Shown here: piece after piece, positions 2,296-53,180 of the stretch
Layout of the letters: each line of letters begins with the position of its first letter
Numbering within the stretch: the first letter of the stretch is position 1
Assembly (NCBI RefSeq): GCF_003018255.1
Contig: NZ_CP027440.1
Origin: Escherichia coli
GTDB lineage: Bacteria; Pseudomonadota; Gammaproteobacteria; Enterobacterales; Enterobacteriaceae
DNA: 64,000 nt
Reading direction: 5' to 3' (one strand)
Notes under the pieces: generated by a model
Databases searched by the model: none
The model's input: only the letters and a program-made list of their open reading frames with translations
Told to the model about the DNA's origin: nothing
Program-made: the position numbers and the translations under genes

Positions 2296-4077
2296 ATGGC
2301 AAAAATGAGAGCCGTTGACGCGGCAATGTATGTGCTGGAGAAAGAAGGTATCACCACCGCCTTCGGCGTTCCGGGAGCTGCAATCAATCCGTTCTACTCA
2401 GCGATGCGTAAGCACGGCGGTATTCGTCACATTCTGGCGCGTCATGTGGAAGGTGCTTCGCACATGGCGGAAGGTTATACCCGCGCAACGGCAGGGAATA
2501 TCGGCGTATGTCTGGGGACTTCCGGTCCTGCGGGCACGGACATGATCACCGCGCTCTATTCCGCTTCTGCTGATTCCATTCCTATTCTGTGCATTACCGG
2601 CCAGGCACCGCGCGCCCGTCTGCATAAAGAAGATTTTCAGGCCGTAGATATTGAAGCAATTGCTAAACCGGTCAGCAAAATGGCGGTTACAGTTCGTGAA
2701 GCGGCGCTGGTGCCTCGCGTGCTGCAACAGGCGTTTCACCTGATGCGTTCTGGTCGTCCGGGTCCGGTACTGGTGGATTTACCGTTCGACGTTCAGGTTG
2801 CGGAAATCGAGTTTGATCCTGACATGTACGAACCGCTGCCGGTCTACAAACCTGCTGCCAGCCGTATGCAGATCGAAAAAGCGGTAGAAATGTTAATTCA
2901 GGCCGAACGTCCGGTGATTGTTGCCGGGGGCGGGGTAATCAATGCTGACGCTGCTGCACTGTTACAACAGTTTGCTGAACTGACCAGCGTTCCGGTGATC
3001 CCAACGCTGATGGGCTGGGGCTGTATCCCGGATGACCACGAACTGATGGCCGGGATGGTGGGTCTGCAAACCGCGCATCGTTACGGTAACGCAACGTTGC
3101 TGGCGTCCGACATGGTGTTTGGTATCGGTAACCGTTTTGCGAACCGTCATACCGGTTCGGTAGAGAAATACACCGAAGGGCGCAAAATCGTTCATATCGA
3201 TATTGAGCCGACGCAAATTGGCCGCGTGCTGTGTCCGGATCTCGGCATTGTCTCTGATGCTAAAGCGGCGCTGACACTGCTGGTTGAAGTGGCGCAGGAG
3301 ATGCAAAAAGCGGGTCGTCTGCCGTGTCGTAAAGAATGGGTCGCCGACTGCCAGCAGCGCAAACGCACTTTGCTGCGCAAAACCCACTTCGACAATGTGC
3401 CGGTGAAACCGCAGCGCGTGTATGAAGAGATGAACAAAGCCTTTGGTCGCGATGTTTGTTATGTCACCACCATTGGTCTGTCACAAATCGCTGCGGCACA
3501 AATGCTGCATGTCTTTAAAGACCGCCACTGGATCAACTGTGGGCAGGCAGGCCCGTTGGGCTGGACCATTCCGGCGGCGCTGGGCGTGTGTGCCGCTGAT
3601 CCAGAGCGCAATGTGGTGGCGATTTCCGGTGACTTCGACTTCCAGTTCCTGATTGAAGAATTAGCCGTTGGCGCACAGTTCAACATTCCGTACATCCATG
3701 TACTGGTCAATAACGCCTATCTGGGGCTGATTCGCCAGTCGCAGCGCGCGTTTGATATGGATTACTGCGTACAGCTCGCGTTCGAAAATATTAACTCCAG
3801 TGAAGTGAACGGTTACGGCGTCGACCACGTAAAAGTAGCGGAAGGTTTAGGTTGTAAAGCGATTCGCGTTTTCAAACCGGAAGATATTGCACCAGCCTTT
3901 GAACAGGCGAAAGCCTTAATGGCGCAATATCGGGTACCGGTAGTCGTGGAAGTTATTCTCGAGCGTGTGACCAATATTTCGATGGGCAGCGAACTGGATA
4001 ACGTCATGGAATTTGAAGATATCGCCGATAACGCAGTGGACGCACCGACTGAAACCTGCTTCATGCACTATGAATAA
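2296..4077 (+). CDS. gcl: Glyoxylate carboligase (ThDP-dependent)
   Basis: ORF 2206-4077; start trimmed to ATG 2296 ([19 protein letters not shown]) after an AAGGA-like RBS, giving 593 aa. Confidence 0.9.
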
Positions 4078-6013: not shown

Positions 6014-7468
6014 ATGGAACATCAGAGAAAACTATTCCAGCAACGCGGCTATAGCGAAGATCTATTGCCAAAAACGCAAAGCCAGCGGACCTGGAAAACA
6101 TTTAACTATTTTACCTTATGGATGGGTTCGGTTCATAACGTTCCCAATTATGTGATGGTCGGCGGCTTTTTTATTCTCGGCTTGTCTACCTTTAGTATTA
6201 TGCTGGCAATTATCCTCAGCGCCTTTTTCATTGCCGCGGTAATGGTATTAAACGGTGCTGCGGGCAGTAAATACGGTGTGCCTTTTGCCATGATCCTGCG
6301 TGCTTCTTACGGCGTACGTGGTGCACTGTTTCCCGGATTATTAAGAGGCGGGATTGCTGCCATTATGTGGTTTGGCCTGCAATGTTACGCTGGATCGCTG
6401 GCCTGCTTGATCCTGATTGGCAAAATCTGGCCGGGATTTTTAACTCTCGGTGGTGATTTCACGCTGTTAGGCCTTTCTCTACCGGGCTTAATTACTTTCT
6501 TACTCTTCTGGCTGGTCAACGTTGGTATTGGTTTTGGCGGTGGCAAAGTTTTAAATAAATTCACTGCCATTCTTAACCCGTGCATCTATATCGTTTTCGG
6601 CGGTATGGCGATTTGGGCGATTTCGCTGGTCGGGCTCGGTCCAATCTTTGACTACATTCCGAGCGGTATTCAGAAAGCAGAAAACAGTGGCTTCCTGTTC
6701 CTGGTGGTGATTAACGCGGTAGTTGCGGTCTGGGCGGCACCGGCGGTGAGCGCATCCGACTTTACGCAAAACGCCCACTCGTTTCGTGAGCAAGCGCTGG
6801 GGCAAACGCTGGGTTTAGTTGTGGCCTATATTCTGTTTGCGGTCGCCGGGGTATGTATTATTGCCGGAGCCAGTATTCACTACGGCGCTGATACCTGGAA
6901 CGTGCTGGATATTGTTCAGCGTTGGGACAGCCTGTTCGCCTCGTTCTTTGCGGTACTGGTTATTCTGATGACAACTATCTCCACTAACGCCACCGGTAAT
7001 ATTATTCCGGCCGGTTATCAGATTGCCGCTATTGCACCGACGAAACTGACCTATAAAAACGGCGTACTGATTGCCAGTATTATCAGCCTGCTGATCTGCC
7101 CGTGGAAATTAATGGAAAATCAGGACAGTATTTATCTGTTCCTCGATATTATCGGCGGGATGCTGGGTCCGGTAATTGGTGTCATGATGGCGCATTATTT
7201 TGTGGTGATGCGTGGGCAAATTAATCTTGATGAACTGTACACCGCACCTGGCGATTATAAATATTACGATAACGGTTTTAACCTCACTGCGTTTTCAGTA
7301 ACTCTGGTGGCCGTTATTTTATCTCTTGGCGGTAAGTTTATTTCCTTTATGGAACCGTTATCTCGTGTTTCATGGTTTGTCGGCGTCATCGTCGCCTTTG
7401 CGGCCTACGCCTTATTAAAGAAACGTACTACAGCAGAAAAAACAGGAGAACAAAAAGTCACAGGTTAA
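6014..7468 (+). CDS. ybbW: Allantoin permease (NCS1 family)
   Basis: 484-aa polytopic membrane ORF between glxR and allB. Confidence 0.85.
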   Translation: MEHQRKLFQQRGYSEDLLPKTQSQRTWKTFNYFTLWMGSVHNVPNYVMVGGFFILGLSTFSIMLAIILSAFFIAAVMVLNGAAGSKYGVPFAMILRASYGVRGALFPGLLRGGIAAIMWFGLQCYAGSLACLILIGKIWPGFLTLGGDFTLLGLSLPGLITFLLFWLVNVGIGFGGGKVLNKFTAILNPCIYIVFGGMAIWAISLVGLGPIFDYIPSGIQKAENSGFLFLVVINAVVAVWAAPAVSASDFTQNAHSFREQALGQTLGLVVAYILFAVAGVCIIAGASIHYGADTWNVLDIVQRWDSLFASFFAVLVILMTTISTNATGNIIPAGYQIAAIAPTKLTYKNGVLIASIISLLICPWKLMENQDSIYLFLDIIGGMLGPVIGVMMAHYFVVMRGQINLDELYTAPGDYKYYDNGFNLTAFSVTLVAVILSLGGKFISFMEPLSRVSWFVGVIVAFAAYALLKKRTTAEKTGEQKVTG

Positions 7469-8939: not shown

Positions 8940-10247
8940 GTGTTTATGTTCAATTTTGCAGTGGGCCGCGAAAGCCTGTTATCAGGATTTCAGTGGTTTT
9001 TCTTTATTTTTTGCAACACGGTTGTGGTTCCTCCTACGCTACTTTCTGCTTTTCAGTTGCCGCAAAGTAGCCTGCTTACGCTCACGCAATATGCTTTTCT
9101 TGCTACCGTACTGGCCTGCTTCGCTCAGGCGTTCTGCGGTCATCGTCGCGCTATTATGGAGGGGCCGGGCGGCCTGTGGTGGGGAACCATCCTGACTATC
9201 ACCCTTGGCGAAGCATCGCGCGGGACACCGATCAACGATATCGCTACCAGTCTGGCGGTGGGGATTGCGCTCTCCGGCGTGCTGACGATGTTGATTGGTT
9301 TTAGCGGATTAGGCCATCGCCTGGCACGGTTATTTACGCCGTCGGTGATGGTCTTGTTTATGTTGATGCTGGGTGCGCAACTGACCACTATCTTTTTCAA
9401 AGGTATGCTCGGGCTGCCGTTTGGCATAGCCGACCCGAATTTTAAAATTCAATTACCGCCGTTCGCGCTCTCGGTGGCGGTGATGTGCCTGGTACTGGCG
9501 ATGATTATTTTCCTGCCACAACGTTTTGCCCGTTACGGCCTGCTGGTCGGTACGATAACCGGCTGGTTGTTGTGGTACTTTTGCTTTCCTTCTTCGCATT
9601 CGCTCTCCGGTGAGTTGCACTGGCAGTGGTTCCCGCTCGGCAGTGGCGGTGCTTTGTCGCCGGGGATTATTCTGACGGCGGTGATTACAGGTCTGGTAAA
9701 TATCAGCAATACCTACGGTGCGATTCGGGGCACGGATGTTTTTTATCCGCAGCAGGGCGCGGGGAATACGCGTTATCGTCGCAGCTTTGTGGCGACCGGA
9801 TTTATGACACTGATAACCGTGCCGCTGGCAGTAATTCCATTTTCACCGTTTGTTTCATCCATTGGTTTATTAACCCAGACAGGCGATTACACGCGGCGTT
9901 CGTTTATTTATGGCAGCGTTATTTGCCTGCTGGTGGCACTGGTTCCGGCACTCACGCGACTGTTTTGCAGTATCCCTTTACCCGTGAGTAGTGCAGTCAT
10001 GCTGGTTTCTTATCTGCCTTTACTCTTTTCCGCGCTGGTGTTTAGCCAGCAAATAACCTTTACCGCTCGCAATATTTATCGACTCGCATTGCCGTTATTT
10101 GTCGGCATATTTTTAATGGCATTACCGCCTGTGTATCTGCAAGACCTTCCATTAACGCTGCGTCCTCTGCTCAGTAACGGCTTACTGGTCGGGATTTTAC
10201 TGGCTGTTCTTATGGATAATCTTATTCCGTGGGAACGCATCGAATAA
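8940..10247 (+). CDS. ybbY: Putative purine/uracil permease (NCS2 family)
   Basis: 435-aa polytopic membrane ORF; synteny. Confidence 0.8.
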   Translation: MFMFNFAVGRESLLSGFQWFFFIFCNTVVVPPTLLSAFQLPQSSLLTLTQYAFLATVLACFAQAFCGHRRAIMEGPGGLWWGTILTITLGEASRGTPINDIATSLAVGIALSGVLTMLIGFSGLGHRLARLFTPSVMVLFMLMLGAQLTTIFFKGMLGLPFGIADPNFKIQLPPFALSVAVMCLVLAMIIFLPQRFARYGLLVGTITGWLLWYFCFPSSHSLSGELHWQWFPLGSGGALSPGIILTAVITGLVNISNTYGAIRGTDVFYPQQGAGNTRYRRSFVATGFMTLITVPLAVIPFSPFVSSIGLLTQTGDYTRRSFIYGSVICLLVALVPALTRLFCSIPLPVSSAVMLVSYLPLLFSALVFSQQITFTARNIYRLALPLFVGIFLMALPPVYLQDLPLTLRPLLSNGLLVGILLAVLMDNLIPWERIE

Positions 10248-12268: not shown

Positions 12269-12453
12269 AATCGCACGGTTAGCCAGTAAATCTTCGCGGT
12301 AACCGGTGACGTTATTTAAATATCCCTTTTATCAAATAGTGTTTTTTGCTGTTTCATAATGTTTCAGGTCGTTCATTATGTTTTTGATTATCAACGGATT
12401 TGCCATTTTTCTTGTTTCAGCTTGTTTCACGTTGTAGCGCTTTGTGCAACGAT

Positions 12454-12479
12454 CGGTGTAGTTAATGGTGTAGTCAATT
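12454..12479. repeat. attL core of the satellite
   Basis: cggtgtagttaatggtgtagtcaatt identical to 26414-26439; imperfect similarity extends ~30 bp to the left on both copies. Confidence 0.8.
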
Positions 12480-13730
12480 GTGATGACCGGAATCAAAATT
12501 ATGAGCAGAGCACTTAACAAACTGAGTGACACACAGCTAAGGAAAATCAACGGCACACCCGCCCAAAAAACAGCCTTTCTTAATGACGGTGGAAACCTGA
12601 GCGTCAGGCATTCAACCAGCGGCCTTTTAACCTGGTATTTCACATACAGGGCCGGAACGGGAAGAGGGACACAACCTGAACGCGTTAAGCTGGGAAATTA
12701 TCCCGATCTGAGCCTGAAAGCAGCCAGGGAAAAAGCCGCACAGTGTCGCGCATGGCTGGCTGAGGGGAAAAATCCACGCTATGAACTGAATTACACCATG
12801 CAGGAAGCGTTAAAGCCTGCAACGGTTGGCGATGCGCTCACCTACTGGCTTGAGTCGTACGCAAAGGAAAAGCGCACAGATTACGAATCACTGAAAAGCC
12901 GGATCAATAAAAACATAATCATCAAAATTGGTGCTATGCCGCTGGATAAATGCGAGCTACGGCACTGGCTGGCCTGTTTTGATCAGGTGGCAAAGCGAAC
13001 ACCTGTTACTGCCGGATTCTTGCTACAGACATGCAAACAGGCGCTTAAATTCTGCCGTAGGCGGCGCTATGCAATCAGCAACGTTCTGGACGATCTGAAC
13101 GTGGCGGACGTTGGGAAAAAACCGGATATAAGCGAACGTGTCTTAAGCACCAAAGAACTGGGCGAGTTATTGCAGGCGCTGGATAAAAAAATATTTTCTC
13201 CTTACTACGTCGCGTTAATCCGCCTCCTGATTGTCTTCGGAGCCAGGACGGTAGAACTGAGGTTATCGGAGATCAGCGAGTGGGATTTTACCGAAATGCT
13301 ATGGACCGTTCCGAAGGAGCACAGCAAAACGAAGGTTGCAATATTCCGGCCCATACCGGAAGCGATCCTGCCGTTCGTCACGCGGCTGGTGGAGCAGAAC
13401 AGGCACACGGGCTTATTACTGGGGGAAGTGAAACAGGAGGCTAGCGTATCGCAGTACGGCAGATTAGCGCACAGGAGGCTAAAACACCTTCAATGGTCAT
13501 TGCATGACATCCGGCGCACCTTTACAACGATGCTGAATGATTTGGGCGTGGATCCTCACGTCGTGGAGCAGCTTACAGGTCATCAGATGCCAGGGATGCA
13601 ACGAGTCTATAACCACTCCCGTTATCTCGATGCGAAACGTGATGCGCTGGATATGTGGACGGAGCGGTTAGGGATACTGGCGGGAGCACATGAAAACGTA
13701 ACCACGCTACCAGTAACCAGAATAAAATAA
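12480..13730 (+). CDS. int: Tyrosine recombinase / integrase (P4-like)
   Basis: 416-aa ORF abutting attL; C-terminal catalytic region (HDIRRTF...RYLD) typical of phage integrases. Confidence 0.85.
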   Translation: MMTGIKIMSRALNKLSDTQLRKINGTPAQKTAFLNDGGNLSVRHSTSGLLTWYFTYRAGTGRGTQPERVKLGNYPDLSLKAAREKAAQCRAWLAEGKNPRYELNYTMQEALKPATVGDALTYWLESYAKEKRTDYESLKSRINKNIIIKIGAMPLDKCELRHWLACFDQVAKRTPVTAGFLLQTCKQALKFCRRRRYAISNVLDDLNVADVGKKPDISERVLSTKELGELLQALDKKIFSPYYVALIRLLIVFGARTVELRLSEISEWDFTEMLWTVPKEHSKTKVAIFRPIPEAILPFVTRLVEQNRHTGLLLGEVKQEASVSQYGRLAHRRLKHLQWSLHDIRRTFTTMLNDLGVDPHVVEQLTGHQMPGMQRVYNHSRYLDAKRDALDMWTERLGILAGAHENVTTLPVTRIK

Positions 13731-14094
13731 TTTTTTTCGTGTTTTTTCAGTATGCGCATACTGGATAAGTGCACAGATACAACGTGAAACAATGTGCAAC
13801 AACGTGACACAATCATGAACAAGAGGCCAAAAAGAATACAGATTTATAAGTTACTGATTTTTATTGCTCAACTGGTTTTTTATACATTAGCGAATTACGC
13901 GTTAAAGCGTGCGAAAAAAGGCATAAAACAAGATTTTATGCCTTTGTATTAACATGAATTTAAATGATTTTATCCTGATTATTCCTCTTTCTGTAAACCA
14001 TACGACATCAACATTTGCCATTCACCACACTAGCGGGAACAATACGACACAATAAGACACCTGATGACTCTTTAAGAAACGAAAGGGGGCAATA

Positions 14095-14283
14095 GTGTTA
14101 AGCACTGATCGGTTTATACGTGAAAAAGAATGCGAAAAGCTAACAGGCCTTAGCCGCTCATGCCGCTACCGCCTGGAAAAGGCCGGACAATTCCCATCAC
14201 GTCGTAAACTTGGCGGGCGTTCTGTTGGCTGGTCTTTATCTGAGGTTTTGGCCTGGAAGGATAGCTGCAAGGCAGTTCACTAA
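14095..14283 (+). CDS. alpA: AlpA-family transcriptional regulator / excisionase-like protein
   Basis: 62-aa ORF (GTG start) with AlpA-type HTH signature LTGLSRS..Y.L...G.FP...LG.RSVGW..SEV..W. Confidence 0.7.
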   Translation: MLSTDRFIREKECEKLTGLSRSCRYRLEKAGQFPSRRKLGGRSVGWSLSEVLAWKDSCKAVH

Positions 14284-17817: not shown

Positions 17818-18044
17818 CCCTCTACCCCATCTACCTGAATGAAGTAAACGCATATTATTCAACATGATAAGTGGGTAGAGGGCTAGGTAGAAGGCTAATA
17901 AAAGCTCTCTACCCCTTCTACCTGATTTTATCAGTTTCAGGTAGCAGGGTAGACGGCAGGTAGAGGAGCCCAAAAAGCTATCTACCCGCTGAAAGCCGCG
18001 CCATTACTGACATGATGAGCATTCGGGTAGATGGGTAGAGGGGG
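17818..18044. repeat. Iteron-type replication origin
   Basis: At least 8 copies in both orientations of GGTAGA(G/T)GG / CC(C/T)CTACC with AT-rich spacers, directly after the primase-helicase gene. Confidence 0.6.
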
Positions 18045-19092: not shown

Positions 19093-19125
19093 AGCCGGAG
19101 CAATCCGGCTTTTTGTTATTTTTTG
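19093..19125 (+). terminator. Intrinsic terminator after the PerC-like gene
   Basis: Hairpin agccgga-gcaa-tccggct followed by TTTTTGTTATTTTTT. Confidence 0.55.
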
Positions 19126-19336
19126 TAAATTATTTGTTCGTGGTTGTTCCACGTTGTTCACTGAGCGGATCGGCATATTTTACCCGAACTGAATCATGAT
19201 TATTCTCGCCCGTGGTGCCAGGACGCTGGGGCCACTTTCCCGCCTGTTAATGTGCTCGCCAATATTCATTACCAGGCGGGAAAACGATCGGTGCGATTGC
19301 TGATTTCCTTATGAAAAACGGTTGAGTGTTTGCCGC

Positions 19337-19374
19337 GTCCTGGAGTTCCTTACTTAACCCCAGGACTTTTTTTT
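19337..19374 (+). promoter_or_regulatory. Hairpin plus T8 tract abutting the capsid start codon
   Basis: 7-bp stem gtcctgg/ccaggac (16-nt loop) followed by eight T that run directly into ATG 19375; no SD sequence. Confidence 0.4.
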
Positions 19375-20532
19375 ATGCCGAGAATAATCGAATTACGCCA
19401 GCAGAAAACCGCCATTAAAAATCAGATGCGCGACATGCTGGAGAACGCTGAAAAAGAAAACCGCAGTCTTAACGATGCTGAGGGCGCAAAATTTGACGAA
19501 TTACGCGCTAAAGCTGAATCCCTCGATAAAGACATTTCCCGCCTTGAAGCCATTGCAGACGAAGAGCGCAGCAAGCCAGGTAAAAGCAGCCAGACCACTG
19601 ACCCCGCAGAACTACGCAGCTACATTCTGACAGGTGAAACCCGCGCATTAAGTACAGGCGTTCCCGCTGATGGTGGTTATACCGTTATCCCCGAACTGAA
19701 CACCGAAATCATGCGAATGCTGGCGGATGAATCCACCATGCGCCGCATCTGTACCGTGAAAAAAATCAGCAGCAACGAGTTTAAGCAGCTTGTTTCCGCT
19801 GGCGGTGCGACCGTTAACCACGGTGAAGAGGGTAAGGCACGCGAACAGACCAGCACCCCGCAGATTAACGAGGTGAGCATTAAGCTGTATCCGGTCTATG
19901 CGTACCCGCGCACCACACAGGAAATCGTGGATTTTTCCGATGTGGACATCCTTTCATGGCTGACGGGTGAGATTGGCGACACCTTCACGGAAACCGAAGA
20001 AAGCGATCTGGTTGTGGGCGACGGTGACAAAAAAGCAAAAGGTTTTTTATCCGTACCCCGTGCAGAGAAGAACGACAAAGAGCGTGATTTTGGTACGTTG
20101 CAGGTAATTAAACCTTCCGAATCTCTGGCGTGGACATCTGCGGACCCGCTGATCGACCTGAAATTTGCATTACGTAAAAAATACCGCAAAAACGCGGTCT
20201 GGGTGGTTAACTCCACGACGGCGGCAAAACTCCAGAAGGTGAAGAACGCGAACGGTGATTACATCTGGCGTGACCGTTTACAGGCGGGTGATCCTGATAC
20301 GTTGCTGGGCCTTCCGGTCGAATATCTGGAGTTTATGCCTGATAACGTTATTGCCCTGGGTGACTTCAAACGCGGTTACTACATTGTTGATCACGAAACA
20401 GGTGTTCGCACCAGACCGGACAACCTCACAGAGCCGGGCTTCATCAAAATTTTCACGCAGAAATATTTAGGCGGTGGCGTGGTGGATTCGAACGCGATCA
20501 AGATTCTGGAACTGCCACAGGACGACGATTAA
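19375..20532 (+). CDS. Major capsid protein (HK97 fold) with N-terminal coiled-coil scaffold-like region
   Basis: ORF 19330-20532 (TTG) trimmed to ATG 19375 (MPRIIELRQQKTAIKNQ...). Confidence 0.8.
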   Translation: MPRIIELRQQKTAIKNQMRDMLENAEKENRSLNDAEGAKFDELRAKAESLDKDISRLEAIADEERSKPGKSSQTTDPAELRSYILTGETRALSTGVPADGGYTVIPELNTEIMRMLADESTMRRICTVKKISSNEFKQLVSAGGATVNHGEEGKAREQTSTPQINEVSIKLYPVYAYPRTTQEIVDFSDVDILSWLTGEIGDTFTETEESDLVVGDGDKKAKGFLSVPRAEKNDKERDFGTLQVIKPSESLAWTSADPLIDLKFALRKKYRKNAVWVVNSTTAAKLQKVKNANGDYIWRDRLQAGDPDTLLGLPVEYLEFMPDNVIALGDFKRGYYIVDHETGVRTRPDNLTEPGFIKIFTQKYLGGGVVDSNAIKILELPQDDD

Positions 20533-26082: not shown

Positions 26083-26413
26083 AGAGCGGAAACATCATCC
26101 CTCACATTCTGAATGGTCATAATGACCACGCAGGCCATCGAGGCAACCATAGCGATCATCGTTACGGTTGGAGCTTTCCGCCATTGGTGGAAAAGGTGCA
26201 CATCTGGATCATCATTACGGTGATCAAGGGTATGTAAAACCCACCAGCCTGATTAAAGGTTAACCGGAAAAAAAATCCGGTAGCCCCGTTATGGGGATCC
26301 CCATATCGACATTAACGCCCCTCATGAATTGGTGCGCTTCCCCCTGGAAAGATTACCCGCCTGTATATTTCTTGTGTCTATTTGTTCCACGTTGTTTCAT
26401 ACAGTGCACCGAA

Positions 26414-26439
26414 CGGTGTAGTTAATGGTGTAGTCAATT
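26414..26439. repeat. attR core of the satellite
   Basis: Identical 26-mer to 12454-12479. Confidence 0.8.
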
Positions 26440-26531
26440 TGCGATTTTTGGCACTTTTTGTAGTGCGGGTTATTTAATTAAATCAATGTGTTATTGAAAA
26501 TAAGTTATAGATATATCCCATTTATAACTCC

Positions 26532-40824: not shown

Positions 40825-40901
40825 GCGCCCTTAGCTCAGTTGGATAGAGCAACGACCTTCTAAGTCGTGGGCCGCAGGTTCGAATCCTGCAGGGCGCGCC
40901 A
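40825..40901 (+). tRNA. argU: tRNA-Arg (anticodon UCU)
   Basis: GCGCCCTTAGCTCAGTTGGATAGAGCAACGACCTTCTAAGTCGTGGGCCGCAGGTTCGAATCCTGCAGGGCGCGCCA; cloverleaf, UCU anticodon, encoded CCA. Confidence 0.9.
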
Positions 40902-40908
40902 TTAAAAT

Positions 40909-41536
40909 TCAATCAGTTACGCCTTCTTTATTTCTTCTATAATTCCAGAGTGGGACATTATCACCAAAAATGTCGTCTATTTTCCTCGCGTGCTCAGTCA
41001 AATGATTAGGCGCAAGGTGAGCATATCTACGAACCATTTCTCTGGACTCCCATCCGCCCATTTCCTGAAGCACTGATAATGGGACGCCTGACGGAATCAA
41101 CCAGCTTGCCCAGGTATGCCAGAGGTCATGGAAACGGAAATTTTCAATTCCTGCACGACGACAAGCTGATAGCCATGCTGTCTTGCTGTCAATGCGCATC
41201 TTCCTGAGCGCAGGCATTGATGTTCCATCTGCTCGCTTAGCCGCCCTGGTATGTACACCCACATTTGTGATGCTTGCCTGTTTGATCACGCAACACTTTA
41301 GAGGCGGTATCGTTCAGCGCCACACCAATGGCGCAGTTTGATTTGCTATCTTCTGGATTCACCCTGGCAACTTGTCGCTGCATGTCAATCTGTTGCCACT
41401 CCAGATTTATGATGTTCGACTTTCTCAGAACAGTTACCAGCGCAAATTTGACGACAGATTTCAGTGGTTCGGGGCTCTCATCAATCAGGCGTTTGGCCTG
41501 ATTCTTTTGTAAGTCTCTTGTGCCATTCCACCTCAT
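40909..41536 (-). pseudogene. Phage integrase, frameshifted and N-terminally truncated
   Basis: Two reading frames (40909-41289 with the catalytic HDLWHTWAS...RYAHL region; 41237-41536 with the middle region) read as one disrupted integrase oriented with its 3' end next to the tRNA. Confidence 0.7.
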
Positions 41537-41589
41537 ACAGGTTTGCCTGCAAACAGTACTGATATTGCCCAGATATTCCGGCTGGCTTC

Positions 41590-41865
41590 GTGGTTGTTTT
41601 CAACAGTGATGAGGCATCGTGGCATCTCGTTGAAGACCATCGGGGTAAAACGGTTTATGACGTGGCATCAGGGGACGCATTATTTATTTCTGAACTCGGT
41701 CCGTTACCGGAAAATGTCACCAGGTATCCCCGGCAGGGGAGTTTCAGAAGTGGAACGGCATATCATGGATAAAGGATACGGAGGAAGAAACCTCGTTGCT
41801 GGAAGCCTGGAAGATGTATCGGGTGTTGCTGAACCGAGTTGATACATCAACTGCCCCTGATATTT
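41590..41865 (+). pseudogene. Tail fibre assembly (Tfa) gene fragment, frameshifted
   Basis: [19 protein letters not shown]...GPLPENVT in one frame and ...[29 protein letters not shown] in another; typical Tfa N- and C-terminal segments. Confidence 0.5.
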
Positions 41866-41948
41866 AGTGGCCTGTGAACCCTGTCAGAGAGTAATCATTG
41901 GGATTATGCCGCAGAACGTCGTGCGCAAGAACGTGCTGCGGCTGGATG

Positions 41949-42617
41949 CTATTTTTTCCCTGAAGCGGAAAACATTACTACAGTACCTTTAACCTTGGTT
42001 TTAACATTCTCGAAATGCTCTGAGAGTATATGTGTTAAGCCTTCTTCGGAATCTTTTGTGTTTGAAAAGATGCCTTTCTGATTGTAAATGCGCATCAGTT
42101 TTTGACCGAAGCTATTGTGCACAACGCCGTCACCAAGAATTGTGGCTCCGTATAGAGTTCCATCGTCAGTTAAGGCCTGCGCCGCATTGCGTATTACACA
42201 GCTTTTTGTAGATATATTTCCAGGCAGGCAGTGAAGAAGGTAAAACATGGAAATGGAATCAAATTGACCATGTAACGCCGCGGGATAAGGATCAAAAACA
42301 TCATGGCTAATTTTATGTTTAATTTTTGATTCCCCAGCCCTTGTCGATGCCGCGTTCAGGCTAGCTTCGTTCAAATCCATTAAAGATATCAGACTACTCT
42401 CAGGTACGTGAGTAAGGTAAAACCCAGTTCCAACGCCAATATCCAGATGGTTGTTACCTAAATGTTCCAGAAAGTGTGGAAGAAGGTGTTCCTTTGTAGG
42501 ACATCCCCATGCAAGCCGATTTGATACACCCAAAACCCACCAGTCATAAAGCTTTAGGGTAAGTGGTGTGTAAATTTTAGCCCCATCATCTGTGTTTTTT
42601 TTCATTAGTTTCACCAT
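41949..42617 (-). CDS. Class I SAM-dependent methyltransferase
   Basis: 222 aa with SAM-binding motif LDIGVGTGFYL; intact reading frame. Confidence 0.7.
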   Translation of the reverse strand: MVKLMKKNTDDGAKIYTPLTLKLYDWWVLGVSNRLAWGCPTKEHLLPHFLEHLGNNHLDIGVGTGFYLTHVPESSLISLMDLNEASLNAASTRAGESKIKHKISHDVFDPYPAALHGQFDSISMFYLLHCLPGNISTKSCVIRNAAQALTDDGTLYGATILGDGVVHNSFGQKLMRIYNQKGIFSNTKDSEEGLTHILSEHFENVKTKVKGTVVMFSASGKK

Positions 42618-42848
42618 GTTATAGTTTTATTTGTGAATTAAATCAATTATAGCGATGAATTACAAGGGGTTAAATGATGCCACGGCATAACGAATTTGAA
42701 TATATTGAGTCTTGTGTTGCGGTAAGAGGTTACACGCCAGGACGCAGGTTAAATGCTTACAAGATTAGGGGATATTGTTTGCTTTTAACGGTAAACAAAT
42801 TCCCCGGGGCTATACAATACCACCGGGGAGAAAATCTATTTAACGTTG

Positions 42849-43802
42849 TTAAAAGGTGTACTTAAGACCAGCAGTAGTGATGAAGTTATAGTTTTCTATG
42901 CCTGCACCATTTTTGCTGTAGTCAGAAGTGTTATCATTGTGATCATAAAGTGAAGTATCACCTTTTTTATTCGTAACCCGATTCCATGCGCCTTCAATAT
43001 AAACTTTTGCATTAGGCGTTACGTAATAACCTGCATTGACTGCAACAGAATAGTAATTTTGGTCTTTGACTTTACTGCGATAAGTGATTCTTTTTCCTGG
43101 GTCATAGTGTTCATCGTTATCAGATGCTTCCACCCAGCCGCTGTATTTAAATGTGCCACCTAGCTCAAAATCTTCATAACGATAACTTCCAGTCAAGCCA
43201 ATGTAGGGCATTTTAAAACGTTGTTTGTAGCCGATTGCTCTTTCTCCATTCGGGAAGGAGCCGATATCATCTCTGAATCCCTCCTCAGAACTGTAGATAT
43301 AGGAACCACCTCTGGCTGTAAAGCTATAACGGCTTTCCTGATATCCGGCCATGAGTCCCAGGCGGTAATTGGGTTCGTTGAGGAACCAGCCTTTGATATT
43401 CAGATCAAATTCGTTGGCATAATTGAGTTGTGTATCAGGGTGTCTACTTTCATCCGTCCAGGTTCCGGGGTTACTGGAATCCATCCAGTCCTGATCGACC
43501 ATATTGCCACCTCGGCTGCCGAGTGTTGTCCAGCCAGCAGCCCCGATAGATATCTGGGGCATCAAATCCCAATTAATTGCACCTTTAATAATTGCAGCGT
43601 TATTGAATTTCCAGTCAAGTTGACTGACTTTTCGGCCTCCTTCTTCGGCTAGATAAACACGCTCTTTTGTTTTTCCGCTCAGAGTTCCAAGACTAATGTC
43701 CGCATTTATGTTGTCAGGAGTAAACGATAAAGTCTCGGTAGAAGCAAAAGAGCTGATCGCAATAGGGGTTGTCAGGACTATTCCCAGAAGTTTCGCCCGC
43801 AT
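42849..43802 (-). CDS. ompT: Outer-membrane protease (omptin)
   Basis: 317 aa with signal peptide and omptin beta-barrel sequence ending ...TAGLKYTF. Confidence 0.9.
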   Translation of the reverse strand: MRAKLLGIVLTTPIAISSFASTETLSFTPDNINADISLGTLSGKTKERVYLAEEGGRKVSQLDWKFNNAAIIKGAINWDLMPQISIGAAGWTTLGSRGGNMVDQDWMDSSNPGTWTDESRHPDTQLNYANEFDLNIKGWFLNEPNYRLGLMAGYQESRYSFTARGGSYIYSSEEGFRDDIGSFPNGERAIGYKQRFKMPYIGLTGSYRYEDFELGGTFKYSGWVEASDNDEHYDPGKRITYRSKVKDQNYYSVAVNAGYYVTPNAKVYIEGAWNRVTNKKGDTSLYDHNDNTSDYSKNGAGIENYNFITTAGLKYTF

Positions 43803-44226
43803 AAAAGGTCTCCATTCAATCGTTTTAATGATTGAGTATGTATTTTTTATATCTAACTTAATGAGTCAATTGTATATTGCCCCACTGTTTATATTTTGTT
43901 TAACATTGAATTTTTGTCACAATGCACTGTCAGTTTTTTAGTTTAATTGTCTGTTTGTGTTTTGCATTGTGGTTTTATGGGCTAATTATTTTTTTCTTTG
44001 TGGAGTTTTTATCTATTCAAGTACCATGCCTTTAGATGCATATTAGCGATAATAGCATGAGGTTTATCCTCAATTGCTGTGTTTTTTAGTATAAAAAAGA
44101 GGAACAAAACTGAGACACATAAGGCCTCGCAATGGCTTGCAAGGTTTTACATATTTTGAGGTGGTGGAACGTGTGAACGCAGAGATGGCGCGGTAATTTG
44201 TTGATTTAAAATGTCGTTCCTGGAGT

Positions 44227-50745: not shown

Positions 50746-51882
50746 TTACGAAAGCCCGCTCCCAGCAAGGACTGACGCGAGATAGTTTCTGTCCATGGCT
50801 GCTTTTCGCAACTTACGTCTTAACCCTGCCTTGAATACCTTATCATTCGTCAAAATATTAATAGCGATGTGCCGTAGCCCTGAAAATAATTCTGCTGCAT
50901 TTCCTCTTCTTATTTTGCAGTCGTCTTCATTCATTACCACGTCCAGACGCCAGTGCAGCTTATTCTCCACGTGCCAGTGGTTTCGGATTGCTGTGGCGAA
51001 CTTCTCTGCGGTTAAATCAGCAGAACTGATATAATATCTGACCGTCATTTCTGGCTCTTTCTTTTGTTCTGCTATTATTGACCGAAAGGAGACTGCCACG
51101 CATAATTTCTTCAGTCCTTTCCATTCAAACGTGAAATCAATAAGTTCATCAGGGACATCGCAAACAATGTGAAGCCGGATTTCTTCTCTGCCGTGACTCT
51201 TTTCACTAATTGCGTAACTGTCATGCTCTGGATTATTTAATTCTTTCAGTGGGAATTTTTCCTCAAAGGCTTTATTAAGCCGCCCCTGATTTCCTTTTAC
51301 AGCGAATAAATAATCACCGCCCTGTTTTTGTATCTTCTCTGCAATATCTTTCTGGCAACCCATCGCATCAGTTGTGATGATTTTTCCTTTAATATCCAGC
51401 ATGTTAAGAAGTTCTGGGATAGCTGTAATCTCATTAGATTTCTCATCCGTCCTGATCTGTCCGATGACCAGACTGTGCATTGTTGAGAACGCACTAATGA
51501 CATGAATCGCTCCCCTGCGGCGACTCCTGTCATAAGAATGCCGGAGTGTTTTTCCATCGATTGCAATAACGTCTTTATCATCTGAAGTATGGCAATCTCG
51601 CATCCAGTTAATAAAGCACTCGTGAAATTTTGAAGGACTGATACAGGATACAACTCTGGCGATGGTATCGTGAACAGGAATACCATTTTCAAAATCACCA
51701 TATTGTTTTAAAAAATCGAGATGTGTTTCCCCAAAATCCTCTATATCTTCCCAGCCTTCTGCACCAGAAATAACGGCACAAATAGTCAACAGTAGAATAT
51801 CCGACAATTTATGTTCCACTTTCCAGGCTTGTCTGTAATCGGGGATAATAGAAATATGTTCCATCAATTTTTTAAGTTCCAT
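50746..51882 (-). mobile_element. ISAs1-family transposase (H-repeat-associated protein)
   Basis: 378 aa, [51 protein letters not shown]...; classic H-rpt ORF at the distal end of an Rhs element. Confidence 0.85.
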
Positions 51883-51908
51883 TTTGTTCTCCTTAATTAT
51901 GTAAGGAG

Positions 51909-52147
51909 TATTTGATCATGTATACGCAATAAAAAACAGCTTCAGGTAATGAGGAATATCTCGATTTTTAAACATAAAATGCGAATTACTTAGTACAAAA
52001 AATGTACTTCTGATGATCTTTCCCTGGTATTTGATCATGTATAAGCAATAAAAAACAGCTTCAGGTAATGAGGAATATCTCAATTTTTAAACATAAAATG
52101 CGAATTGTTTAGTACAAAAAAGCAGCGTTACGTGATCTTTCCCTGGT
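51909..52147. repeat. Two tandem ~119-bp direct repeats
   Basis: tatttgatcatgtata(c/a)gcaataaaaaacagcttcaggtaatgaggaatatct...ctttccctgg at 51909-52026 and 52028-52147, ~93% identical. Confidence 0.8.
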
Positions 52148-52272
52148 GCAGGAACTGAGGAAGGAACTTTATCAGGTTAAACAGGTGGTGAAGGGAATGA
52201 AGAACGGGATATCCGGCGTATTACGCGAGGTATAAAAATAAAAGCCGGGAGATTGTCACTCCCGGCAACATA

Positions 52273-52554
52273 TTATTTTTTTATTTCATTATATCTGATA
52301 AAAAAAGTATTTAGCGCATCATGTTCATCTTGTGAGAACAATAAAATAATTTTATCCCATGAATGTCCTGTTACTCCATAATAGTCTTCAATATAAGATT
52401 GAAGCCTTATTAATATCTCAATATTGACGATTTCTTTTGGCTCTCTCATTTGCCATCCATCCAGGAAAGCTTTTAACGCCGATATGGTATGCCTGCTTAA
52501 ATATAAAGCTGGTCTTTTTTCTATCATATCAATCAGTTTAACAATATCATTCAT
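52273..52554 (-). CDS. Putative immunity protein for the orphan Rhs toxin tip
   Basis: 93-aa AT-rich ORF starting 3 bp after the orphan toxin stop. Confidence 0.5.
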   Translation of the reverse strand: MNDIVKLIDMIEKRPALYLSRHTISALKAFLDGWQMREPKEIVNIEILIRLQSYIEDYYGVTGHSWDKIILLFSQDEHDALNTFFIRYNEIKK

Positions 52555-52556
52555 AA

Positions 52557-53180
52557 TTAAAACCTTGATGGAGTAATGGTGTATTCGCCAGGAGAGTATA
52601 TATCATTCAGCCAATCTTCATACTTTATACCAGAAGGATTCATATTATCAAAAACTGTATCACCTACTTTTATTGCTTCATGATGACCATTAGTTGCTAT
52701 ATTTTTACCTATTCTATCACTCCATATATTGCCAAAGGCACCTTGTTTATTTTTAGTTTCGAGTATGAGATGCTCACCATTTACCCCAGCTTGTTGCATT
52801 TTACTTTTTAACGCTGCGGCAAATTTATCGCATTGAAAAAGCTGTTTAAACTTATCACTTATTGTTGTTGCAAGATCCCTTGTTTTTGCGATATCGCAAA
52901 TGGTTAATCCTAATGGATCAATATAACCAAGGGGATTATGAACATATGCATAATTGTTTATCCCGCCTCTCAGCCCTATCGGGTCACTCACCAGGTACAT
53001 CCCTGTTTCCGGCTCGTAATACCGGAACCGGTTATAGCACAGCCCGGATTCCGTATCCTGCCACTGTCCTGCATACAGCAGGCCGGGGTCGGGGTCGGCT
53101 TCCGGGTCCAGCTCCCCGCGCGGGTCCGGGTAGCCGGTGTCTGCGGGCAGACTGAGTGCCAGCCCCCACAGGCTGGTTTG
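52557..53180 (-). CDS. Orphan Rhs C-terminal module (core end with DPxGL motifs plus ~115-aa toxin domain)
   Basis: In frame with the upstream orphan core but separated by TGA; reads ...YRYYEPETGMYLVSDPIGLRGG...YIDPLGLTICDIAKTRD... Confidence 0.55.
   Translation of the reverse strand, partial: QTSLWGLALSLPADTGYPDPRGELDPEADPDPGLLYAGQWQDTESGLCYNRFRYYEPETGMYLVSDPIGLRGGINNYAYVHNPLGYIDPLGLTICDIAKTRDLATTISDKFKQLFQCDKFAAALKSKMQQAGVNGEHLILETKNKQGAFGNIWSDRIGKNIATNGHHEAIKVGDTVFDNMNPSGIKYEDWLNDIYSPGEYTITPSRF

Follow-up and report, generated by a model that had tools for sequence, protein, structure and literature searches.

Phased 10-bp repeat arrays at the att arms, alpA and capsid operon of an Escherichia coli satellite island, candidate operators of AlpA

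We analyzed a stretch of 64,000 nucleotides of the Escherichia coli contig NZ_CP027440.1 (assembly GCF_003018255.1; hereafter the window), which carries an island of 14.2 kb between its attachment (att) cores, inserted in the chromosome at the allE start codon. Judged by its genes, this element is a capsid-forming phage-inducible chromosomal island (cf-PICI). We found that short repeats in its att arms and around the integrase gene int are units of arrays in which a 10-bp motif, TTGTTyCwsr, is repeated head-to-tail. From sequence comparisons, we consider it likely (a probability of roughly 0.6) that these arrays, termed T2, are operators for the AlpA protein of the satellite itself, a regulator and recombination directionality factor (RDF) akin to P4 Vis and TorI, and that the distinct 12-bp tandem pairs beside them, termed T1, are arm-type sites of the integrase (Int). 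In Gram-negative PICIs and cf-PICIs, AlpA acts as the master inducer.

Results

The repeats belong to arrays with a 10-bp phase

A previous, sequence-only reading of the window had noted CACGTTG-containing repeats that flank int and recur inside the satellite, and had regarded them as consistent with arm-type integrase sites or excisionase (AlpA) sites. All five copies are present, at positions shifted by 2-3 nt: GTTTCACGTTGT at 12424-12435 and GTTCCACGTTGT at 19146-19157 and 26384-26395, all on the + strand, and the reverse-complement 12-mer at 13779-13790 (exact) and 13799-13810 (one mismatch). As had been described, they lie in both att arms (P' and P), on both sides of int and again inside the satellite. 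Enumeration against a shuffled background placed the 12-mer GTTYCACGTTGT above chance, with five matches (at most one mismatch) against 0.57 expected, a number reached in 0 of 100 shuffles. The 7-mer CACGTTG itself was not enriched (13 matches against 11.0 expected; 34 of 100 shuffles reached 13), and it was rejected as the repeat core, since the conserved part of the unit lies elsewhere, as indicated by the unit logo described below. In addition, the copies at 12424 and 26384 cannot be counted as independent: both belong to one direct duplication of 75 nt (12405-12479 and 26365-26439, 80% identical).

A search independent of this motif, using the pattern TTGT-N6-TTGT-N6-TTGT, gave seven matches against 0.01 expected, all at four loci inside the island. 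The actual signal consists of runs of three to five units with the consensus TTGTTyCwsr, and the motif noticed previously is the best-matching unit of these head-to-tail arrays, whose exact 10-bp phase was observed at five loci. The occurrence of phased arrays only in the island favors AlpA as their binder. By writing the sequence in a 10-nt register, we separated two repeat classes: T2, the 10-bp unit, and T1, a tandem 12-bp pair (Table 1). An Rfam scan of 11.5-27.5 kb matched no family.

The P' arm is ordered as core (12311-12332), T2 arrays (12340-12451), arm pair (12455-12478) and int ATG (12501). As in RDF arrays, at least three direct repeats about one helical turn apart lie between the core and int, beside the arm pair. 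The T1 pair, GGTGTAGTyAAT in two copies (GGTGTAGTnAAT), is confined to the att arms, where it adjoins arrays A and D on the side that faces int. The stretch between array A and the int ATG yielded no sigma70-like int promoter (Pint).

Table 1. Positions in the window of the repeat arrays, arm pairs, att cores and associated features
Feature	Position	Strand	Description
attL core	12311..12332	+	GTTATTTAAATATCCCTTTTAT; from alignment to the empty K-12 allE/allC junction
Core-proximal block, P' arm	12340..12379	+	About 4 weaker T2 units with 10-bp period: tGTTTTT, tGTTTCA, tGTTTCA, cGTTCA
Array A, P' arm	12412..12451	+	4 T2 units: TTGTTTCAGC TTGTTTCACG TTGTAGCGCT TTGTGCAACG; includes the 12-mer noted previously
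T1 pair, P' arm	12455..12478	+	GGTGTAGTTAAT GGTGTAGTCAAT; ends 22 bp before the int ATG
int	12501..13730	+	P4-type tyrosine integrase; Arm-DNA-bind_3 and Phage_integrase
Array B, int-alpA spacer	13773..13822	-	5 inverted T2 units; includes both reverse-complement copies noted previously
Hairpin	13920..13942	+	GGCATAAAA-N5-TTTTATGCC then TTTG; follows array B and precedes the promoter-like element of alpA
alpA promoter-like element	14015-14043	+	TTGCCA-17-AACAAT; overlapped by array E
Array E	14033..14062		ACAAy units in inverted orientation, 10-bp period; overlaps the promoter-like element of alpA
alpA	14095..14283	+	62 aa; PF05930 (Pfam E 5e-18); proposed array binder
Array C	19134..19163	+	3 T2 units: TTGTTCGTGG TTGTTCCACG TTGTTCACTG
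Capsid/packaging promoter-like site	19179..19206	+	-35 TTTACC, 16-nt spacer, -10 TATTCT
Array D, P arm	26372..26401	+	3 T2 units: TTGTGTCTAT TTGTTCCACG TTGTTTCATA
T1 pair, P arm	26415..26438	+	GGTGTAGTTAAT GGTGTAGTCAAT; 65 bp from the core
attR core	26504..26525	+	GTTATAGATATATCCCATTTAT; from comparison with the empty K-12 site

The arrays are conserved in related islands

The alignment of the att arms of related satellites revealed that arrays A and D and the core-proximal block are conserved. In relatives inserted at allE, caiT, tqsA, roxA/phoQ and abgR/smrA, arrays A, B and D as well as T1 occupy the same positions (the T1 pair of the caiT and tqsA islands is present as GGTGTAGTCACT), and the HK97-type relatives keep array C as well. 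The island EcCICFT073 carries array A, a six-unit array B, array D and both T1 pairs, and lacks array C. In the region of array E, phased ACAAy/CCAAT units are kept in L002, L003, L006-L008 and CFT073. The core-proximal block is kept in all arms of islands with AlpA group I, the group of the recognition helix RSCRYR, and is replaced by GTGTTCG units in L009/L011.

Relatives were found with a four-sequence AlpA alignment, and 58 non-redundant group I int-alpA spacers were drawn from genomes and IMG/VR. Three to six units in exact 10-bp phase were present in 56 of the 58. In diverged spacers, array B persists as five or six strictly phased units, while free variation is seen at the bases that separate the TTGTT(y)C cores; this maintenance of the phase also favors AlpA. 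A logo of 273 units showed TTGT (set by the search), followed by T (0.81 bit), y, C/G (1.03 bit), w, s and r, so the information resides in TTGT-T-y-C and the 'CACG' part is weakly conserved. In the Klebsiella-type cf-PICI vB_KppS-Ant (L014), approximately 16 phased 10-bp units occupy 7129-7330 upstream of alpA (CATTCAACAG four times, ACACGTAACG three to six times and TGTTCATCA six times), in both orientations and in far greater number than in the E. coli islands.

The hairpin at 13920-13942, which separates array B from the promoter-like element of alpA, is bounded by an A-run and a T-run. A terminator-like RNA structure is supported at this site because one of its stem pairs varies across relatives (A-U, G.U or G-C), and the hairpin is probably the int terminator.

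A different explanation is that the arrays are iterons, in an origin- or crr-like region, for a satellite replication initiator, in the way that the P4 alpha protein works with the TGTTCACC type 1 repeats. The type 1 iterons of P4 (TGTTCACC/A) and the position of its crr, adjoining attP, agree with this proposal, as do the TGTTCACC repeats found right after the primase gene in L014 and the location of array C downstream of the replication module. However, the same motif in the same positions accompanies a D5-type primase, a DUF927 protein or a RepA helicase; the P4 and L014 repeats occur in both orientations and lack a regular 10-bp head-to-tail phase; and in the window the primase gene is followed by other repeats, CTCTACCCCwTCTACCTGA at 17820-17838 and 17907-17925. 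We therefore regard the iteron proposal as very improbable, and the persistence of an unchanged motif across islands with three unrelated replication proteins favors AlpA. The two CTCTACCCCwTCTACCTGA copies are 87 bp apart and unrelated to the TTGTT arrays; they are probably the iterons of the satellite origin.

In the P' arms, the T2 flavour appears to follow the AlpA allele and the T1 pair Int

The sequence of the T1 pair changes with the N-terminal domain of Int. When this domain is 78-100% identical to that of the window, T1 is GGTGTAGT (GGTGTAGTyAnT); at 65% identity (L092) it is GTGTAGTCAGTG, at 61% (L010 group) TGTGTGGTCAGT, and at 46% (L014) TGTATAAACA. The T2 core, TTGTTC or GTTC, is retained at every identity level compared. 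An apparent 'ACAGGCG' class of arm pairs was discarded as an artefact of contigs that begin at the int ATG.

The flavour of the T2 units in the P' arms divides in another manner. In 18 non-redundant arms with AlpA group I and T1 class a, we counted 71 GTTyCA and 1 GTTCG units. With AlpA group II (recognition helix RTTRYE), the counts were 0 GTTyCA and 9 GTTCG in two non-redundant arms of T1 class a, and 1 and 17, respectively, in six arms of T1 class c. In total, GTTyCA predominates 71:1 in group I, and GTTCG 26:1 in group II. Arms with the same T1 thus differ in T2 according to alpA, which lies 1.6 kb from them. In these arms, the T2 flavour appears to track the AlpA allele, and T1 tracks the Int N-terminal domain.

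These observations bear on the possibility that the Int N-terminal domain uses the T2 TTGTTyCA units as its arm-type sites, with the GGTGTAGT pairs binding something else. Such an assignment would fit the presence of T2 units in both arms, in direct orientation and beside int, the arm-binding domain of P4-type Int, and the finding that P4 Int represses its own promoter (PMC7286903). Nevertheless, the arrays are not confined to att, as B, E and C are located at 13.8, 14.0 and 19.1 kb (1.3-7 kb from att), and the T2 core is kept at 46-61% identity of the Int N-domain while the 12-bp pair changes completely. Moreover, arms with the same pair and a 79% identical Int N-domain still differ in flavour by AlpA allele, and the annotated arm repeats of P4 are 12-bp tandem pairs placed like GGTGTAGT, unlike the 10-bp arrays. 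We thus judge this assignment quite unlikely, and propose, on the basis of their sequence and placement, that the T1 pairs are the Int arm-type sites.

The AlpA model resembles excisionases

The island encodes a candidate for a cognate RDF, the small winged-helix protein AlpA, identified by its PF05930 hit and its AlphaFold2 model. The model (predicted local distance difference test score, 85.5) has the topology beta-H-H-beta-beta-H of the winged-helix excisionase fold. It is closest to the GIsul2 excisionase (8c3t), with template modelling scores of 0.84/0.91, a root-mean-square deviation of 0.9 Å and 38% identity, and the next structural matches are RdfS, Pukovnik Xis, TorI and BldC. This best match to excisionases supports AlpA as an RDF that would bind the arrays. 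Overexpression of the GIsul2 AlpA promotes circular intermediates (PMC9376610), the PICMI AlpA is sufficient for excision (PMC10803314), and the EcCICFT073 AlpA expressed from a plasmid activates a fragment with the alpA promoter and triggers excision without a helper (PMC6092414). The latter protein (WP_000953274.1) is 95% identical to AlpA of the window, and its island has the arrays, so its activities favor our interpretation. A mapped AlpA operator was not found in the searchable literature, including that on EcCICFT073.

Two other ideas about the binder were set aside. The protein DUF4222 was rejected, as no Pfam DUF4222 was found among the five open reading frames scanned in L014, yet L014 retains the arrays. 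The antitermination model described for the Pseudomonas aeruginosa AlpA and its AlpA-binding element (ABE) does not apply either, because that AlpA is an unrelated Q-like protein that shares only the name. It has eight helices, at least about 140 residues (with contacts up to H142) and an N-terminal ring-forming segment, and its ABE is a single site of 6 bp between -35 and -10 (PMC9371919), whereas a 62-aa winged-helix protein and multi-unit arrays are present here.

The arrays could instead be bound by a factor from outside the satellite, either an inducer or RDF of the helper, as P2 Cox on P4, or a winged-helix regulator of the host with 10-bp direct repeats as its binding sites. In P4 (L013), three 10-bp tandem repeats CTTAAAGnCA, annotated as 'ori type 2 repeats' (CCACTTAAAG TCATTTAAAG CCACTTAAAG, 9176-9205), lie upstream of vis and resemble P2 Cox boxes. 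The arm pair GTGTAGTC matches the lambda Xis site X1, ATGTAGTC, at 7 of 8 positions (lambda attP, L098); lambda is a helper of the related EcCICFT073, and the likeness may be a coincidence. Cox sites in P4 were the subject of Saha et al. 1989 (cited by PMC7498355), and helper phages switch on alpA transcription (PMC6092414). On the other side, the flavour of the arms follows the AlpA allele of the island itself, the plasmid-borne AlpA acts on the alpA promoter fragment and on excision without a helper (PMC6092414), and the arrays are placed like cognate RDF sites beside Int arm sites. We consider a non-satellite binder unlikely.

An array precedes the capsid operon

Array C directly follows a terminator-like hairpin (19093-19110) and lies 15 bp upstream of a promoter-like site that would serve the capsid/packaging operon; the capsid ATG is at 19375. 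This site was read from the sequence and the alignment, and we treat it as putative because a stricter promoter scan did not detect it. The array sits in a block, TTTTGTAAATTATTTG, that is invariant in six cf-PICIs, and its flavour follows the T2 of each island, being TTGTTCG in L010 and TTCAT in L014. With respect to the putative promoter, the units are at about -45 to -75, which is plausibly an activator position.

A PerC-family activator gene (18702/18822-19070, Pfam E 3e-35) lies directly upstream of the terminator-like hairpin and ends 64 bp before array C, and several relatives also have a PerC-family gene at the same place, upstream of the array. Array C alone might thus be the operator of this activator, in which case its likeness to the arm arrays would be incidental. 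However, array C is present in L002 and L010, where no PerC gene is annotated, and the flavour of array C follows the arm motif of each island. A PerC operator therefore seems to us distinctly unlikely.

The leader from array C to the capsid ATG (19160-19390) has a folding energy of -87.9 kcal/mol (z = -6.6 against shuffles), and a hairpin at 19338-19366 followed by U8 immediately precedes the capsid ATG, with no Shine-Dalgarno sequence. Antitermination at this hairpin was considered and dropped, because the hairpin is not conserved in L002, L010 and L014, which have a second leader type that lacks it.

The island and its att sites

According to Pfam hits, the island carries int, alpA, DUF4222, a D5-type primase, a single-stranded DNA-binding protein and the PerC-family gene, followed by HK97-type capsid, protease, portal, HNH, TerS and TerL genes. 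It thus has its own capsid/packaging set and connectors, a dedicated att site, a length in the range of about 10-15 kb expected for such islands and the gene order of annotated relatives, in agreement with the gene set of capsid-forming PICIs (bioRxiv 10.1101/2022.09.08.507074). No tail or lysis genes were present in the annotations of the gene-order-matched relatives.

The att core, GTTAT..A.ATATCCC.TTTAT, is present at both ends, and attB, GTTATTTAAATATCCCATTTAT, spans the allE start codon. The attL core overlaps this codon, which is lost here (CAT to CTT, + strand); the insertion deprives allE of its ATG and interrupts the allD-allC-allE cluster. A 27-nt exact repeat was rejected as the att core, since the empty K-12 site puts the core approximately 90 bp farther out. 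For the same reason, the 75-nt duplication is internal, and circularisation leaves its two copies flanking the core, one in each of the arms P and P'.

The integrases of islands at allE, caiT, tqsA, roxA/phoQ and abgR/smrA (including L003, L004, L006 and L007) are approximately 84-95% identical. The reconstructed attP cores of the allE, caiT and tqsA islands differ only in the central 6-9 bp (AAGTTATAnATA-[TATCCC|AAAACA|ACAGCA]-TTTTATCAA), and in each case this segment matches the target of the island. Such a pattern suggests retargeting by a change of the overlap sequence. Elsewhere in the window, tRNA-Arg(TCT) (40825-40901) is followed by low-GC stretches (0.35-0.41) at 41000-44000 and 51000-53000, possibly another integrated element.

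Discussion

The proposal that the repeats are integrase or excisionase sites has to be divided. Its excisionase/AlpA half is supported by head-to-tail units spaced by one turn, by their location in the position of TorI sites, by their recurrence at promoters, and by an arm flavour that appears to follow the AlpA allele. In contrast, its integrase arm-type half does not hold for these repeats, because a separate, arm-only pair, GGTGTAGTyAAT in two copies, has the geometry of the P4 arm repeats and changes with the Int N-domain.

We infer that AlpA binds the T2 arrays directly, bends the DNA and acts as an activator at array C. After induction, monomers of AlpA would assemble cooperatively along a single face of the helix, and the DNA would become bent. 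Within the arms (A, D and the core-proximal block), the resulting bent filament, beside Int-bound T1 pairs, would aid the assembly of the excisive attL x attR complex. Array B in the int-alpA spacer and array E at the promoter-like element of alpA would serve in alpA autoregulation, and array C would tie transcription of the capsid/packaging operon to the same AlpA switch.

Several observations weigh against this interpretation. Fillol-Salom et al. saw no effect of AlpA on a Pint reporter (PMC6092414), though array A abuts int. Array E overlaps -10/+1 of the best promoter-like element, which predicts repression, whereas the published net effect is activation, and array B is located upstream of the probable int terminator. 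In KplE1, RDF sites are in attL only, while here they are in both arms. Furthermore, the co-variation rests on only about three to five independent lineages, and the group I arrays upstream of alpA mix GTTCG (86) with GTTyCA (97), so the flavour is clean only in the arms.

A broader version of the AlpA proposal, which we offer tentatively and consider doubtful, is that a single 62-aa AlpA reads a TTGTTC-every-10-bp code at both arms, its own promoter and the capsid operon, that GTTyCA and GTTCG correspond to specificity groups, and that arrays B and E receive the helper signal. If this were true, excision, autoamplification and production of virion heads would be one switch, the allele-specific flavours would keep co-resident PICIs from cross-inducing, and arrays B and E would be the natural entry point of the signal from the helper phage. 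The architecture itself is ordinary for known P4-type int/RDF modules. The value of the present analysis lies in a specific, testable candidate for the AlpA operator, defined by sequence, phase and five positions and set apart from the Int arm-type sites, with a predicted AlpA regulon that includes the capsid operon.

Comparison with known systems

RDFs such as Apl, Cox, Xis and Vis bind tandem direct repeats one turn apart, head-to-tail and cooperatively, bend the DNA, and are reused at promoters (PMC7498355); RdfS and BldC behave likewise (PMC11963761). The binding mode and the combined use at att and promoters that we propose here are the same as those of 186 Apl, P2 Cox, lambda Xis, RdfS and BldC, although these proteins are unrelated or only distantly related to AlpA in sequence. 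A further difference is the sign of regulation: repression of switch promoters by Apl and Cox, but net activation in the published data on alpA.

The closest mapped counterpart is KplE1 (CPS-53). Its attL contains TorI sites and IntS arm-type sites that overlap PintS; the TorI sites have GTTCG/GATCG/GTCCG cores, and one block consists of three sites with a 10-bp period that abuts the PintS -35 (Panis et al., PMC2951348). As in the window, the core is followed by two blocks of RDF sites, then by the Int arm sites and the int ATG; IntS has the same Arm-DNA-bind_3 domain as Int, and the RDF is a small winged-helix protein. The KplE1 unit, with a GTTCG-type core and 10-bp period, is that of AlpA group II islands. 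The agreement of our layout with the shared RDF binding mode and with the mapped KplE1 attL order favors the AlpA interpretation. TorI differs in being 26% identical to AlpA and not a PF05930 hit; it represses PintS, whereas the EcCICFT073 AlpA has no effect on Pint, and no RDF sites have been reported at a structural-gene operon of KplE1. TorI binds TorR, and the TorR box, CTGTTCATAT, also resembles the phased unit.

In P4, as in the window, int precedes a gene of the vis/alpA family and an alpha-type primase. Its annotated 12-bp 'attP arm sequence repeats' are tandem pairs on both sides of the core, as here, and the gap from its P' pair to the int ATG is 15 bp (22 bp in the window). In the P4 P' arm (3966-4010), four TCC (xTCCG) units in exact 10-bp phase lie on the core-proximal side of the arm pair, and these may be candidate Vis sites. 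The targets of Vis are attP, Pint and a late promoter. P4 differs in the sequence of its repeats (TTGGGGGCATAA and GTCCG), in Vis being 42-44% identical to AlpA, and in encoding no capsid. In CP4-57, a 12-bp pair (TAGGCCCAttGA in two copies) upstream of intA is preceded by phased GTCCG/ATCCG motifs. The layout shared by P4 and CP4-57, together with the arm unit flavour that follows the AlpA allele, likewise argues for AlpA.

The prototypes EcCICFT073 and EcCIEDL933, a PICI and a cf-PICI, respectively, have an AlpA 95% identical to that of the window and the same arrays A, B and D and arm pairs. In these islands, AlpA is required for induction and autoactivates, and its overexpression leads to excision and replication. 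EcCICFT073 differs by lacking array C and the HK97-type packaging module and by its insertion at roxA/phoQ instead of allE. The order of core, phased RDF sites, 12-bp Int arm pair and int thus recurs in P4, CP4-57, KplE1 and these islands, and its recognition should make the att sites and regulatory regions of P4-type integrase modules easier to annotate.

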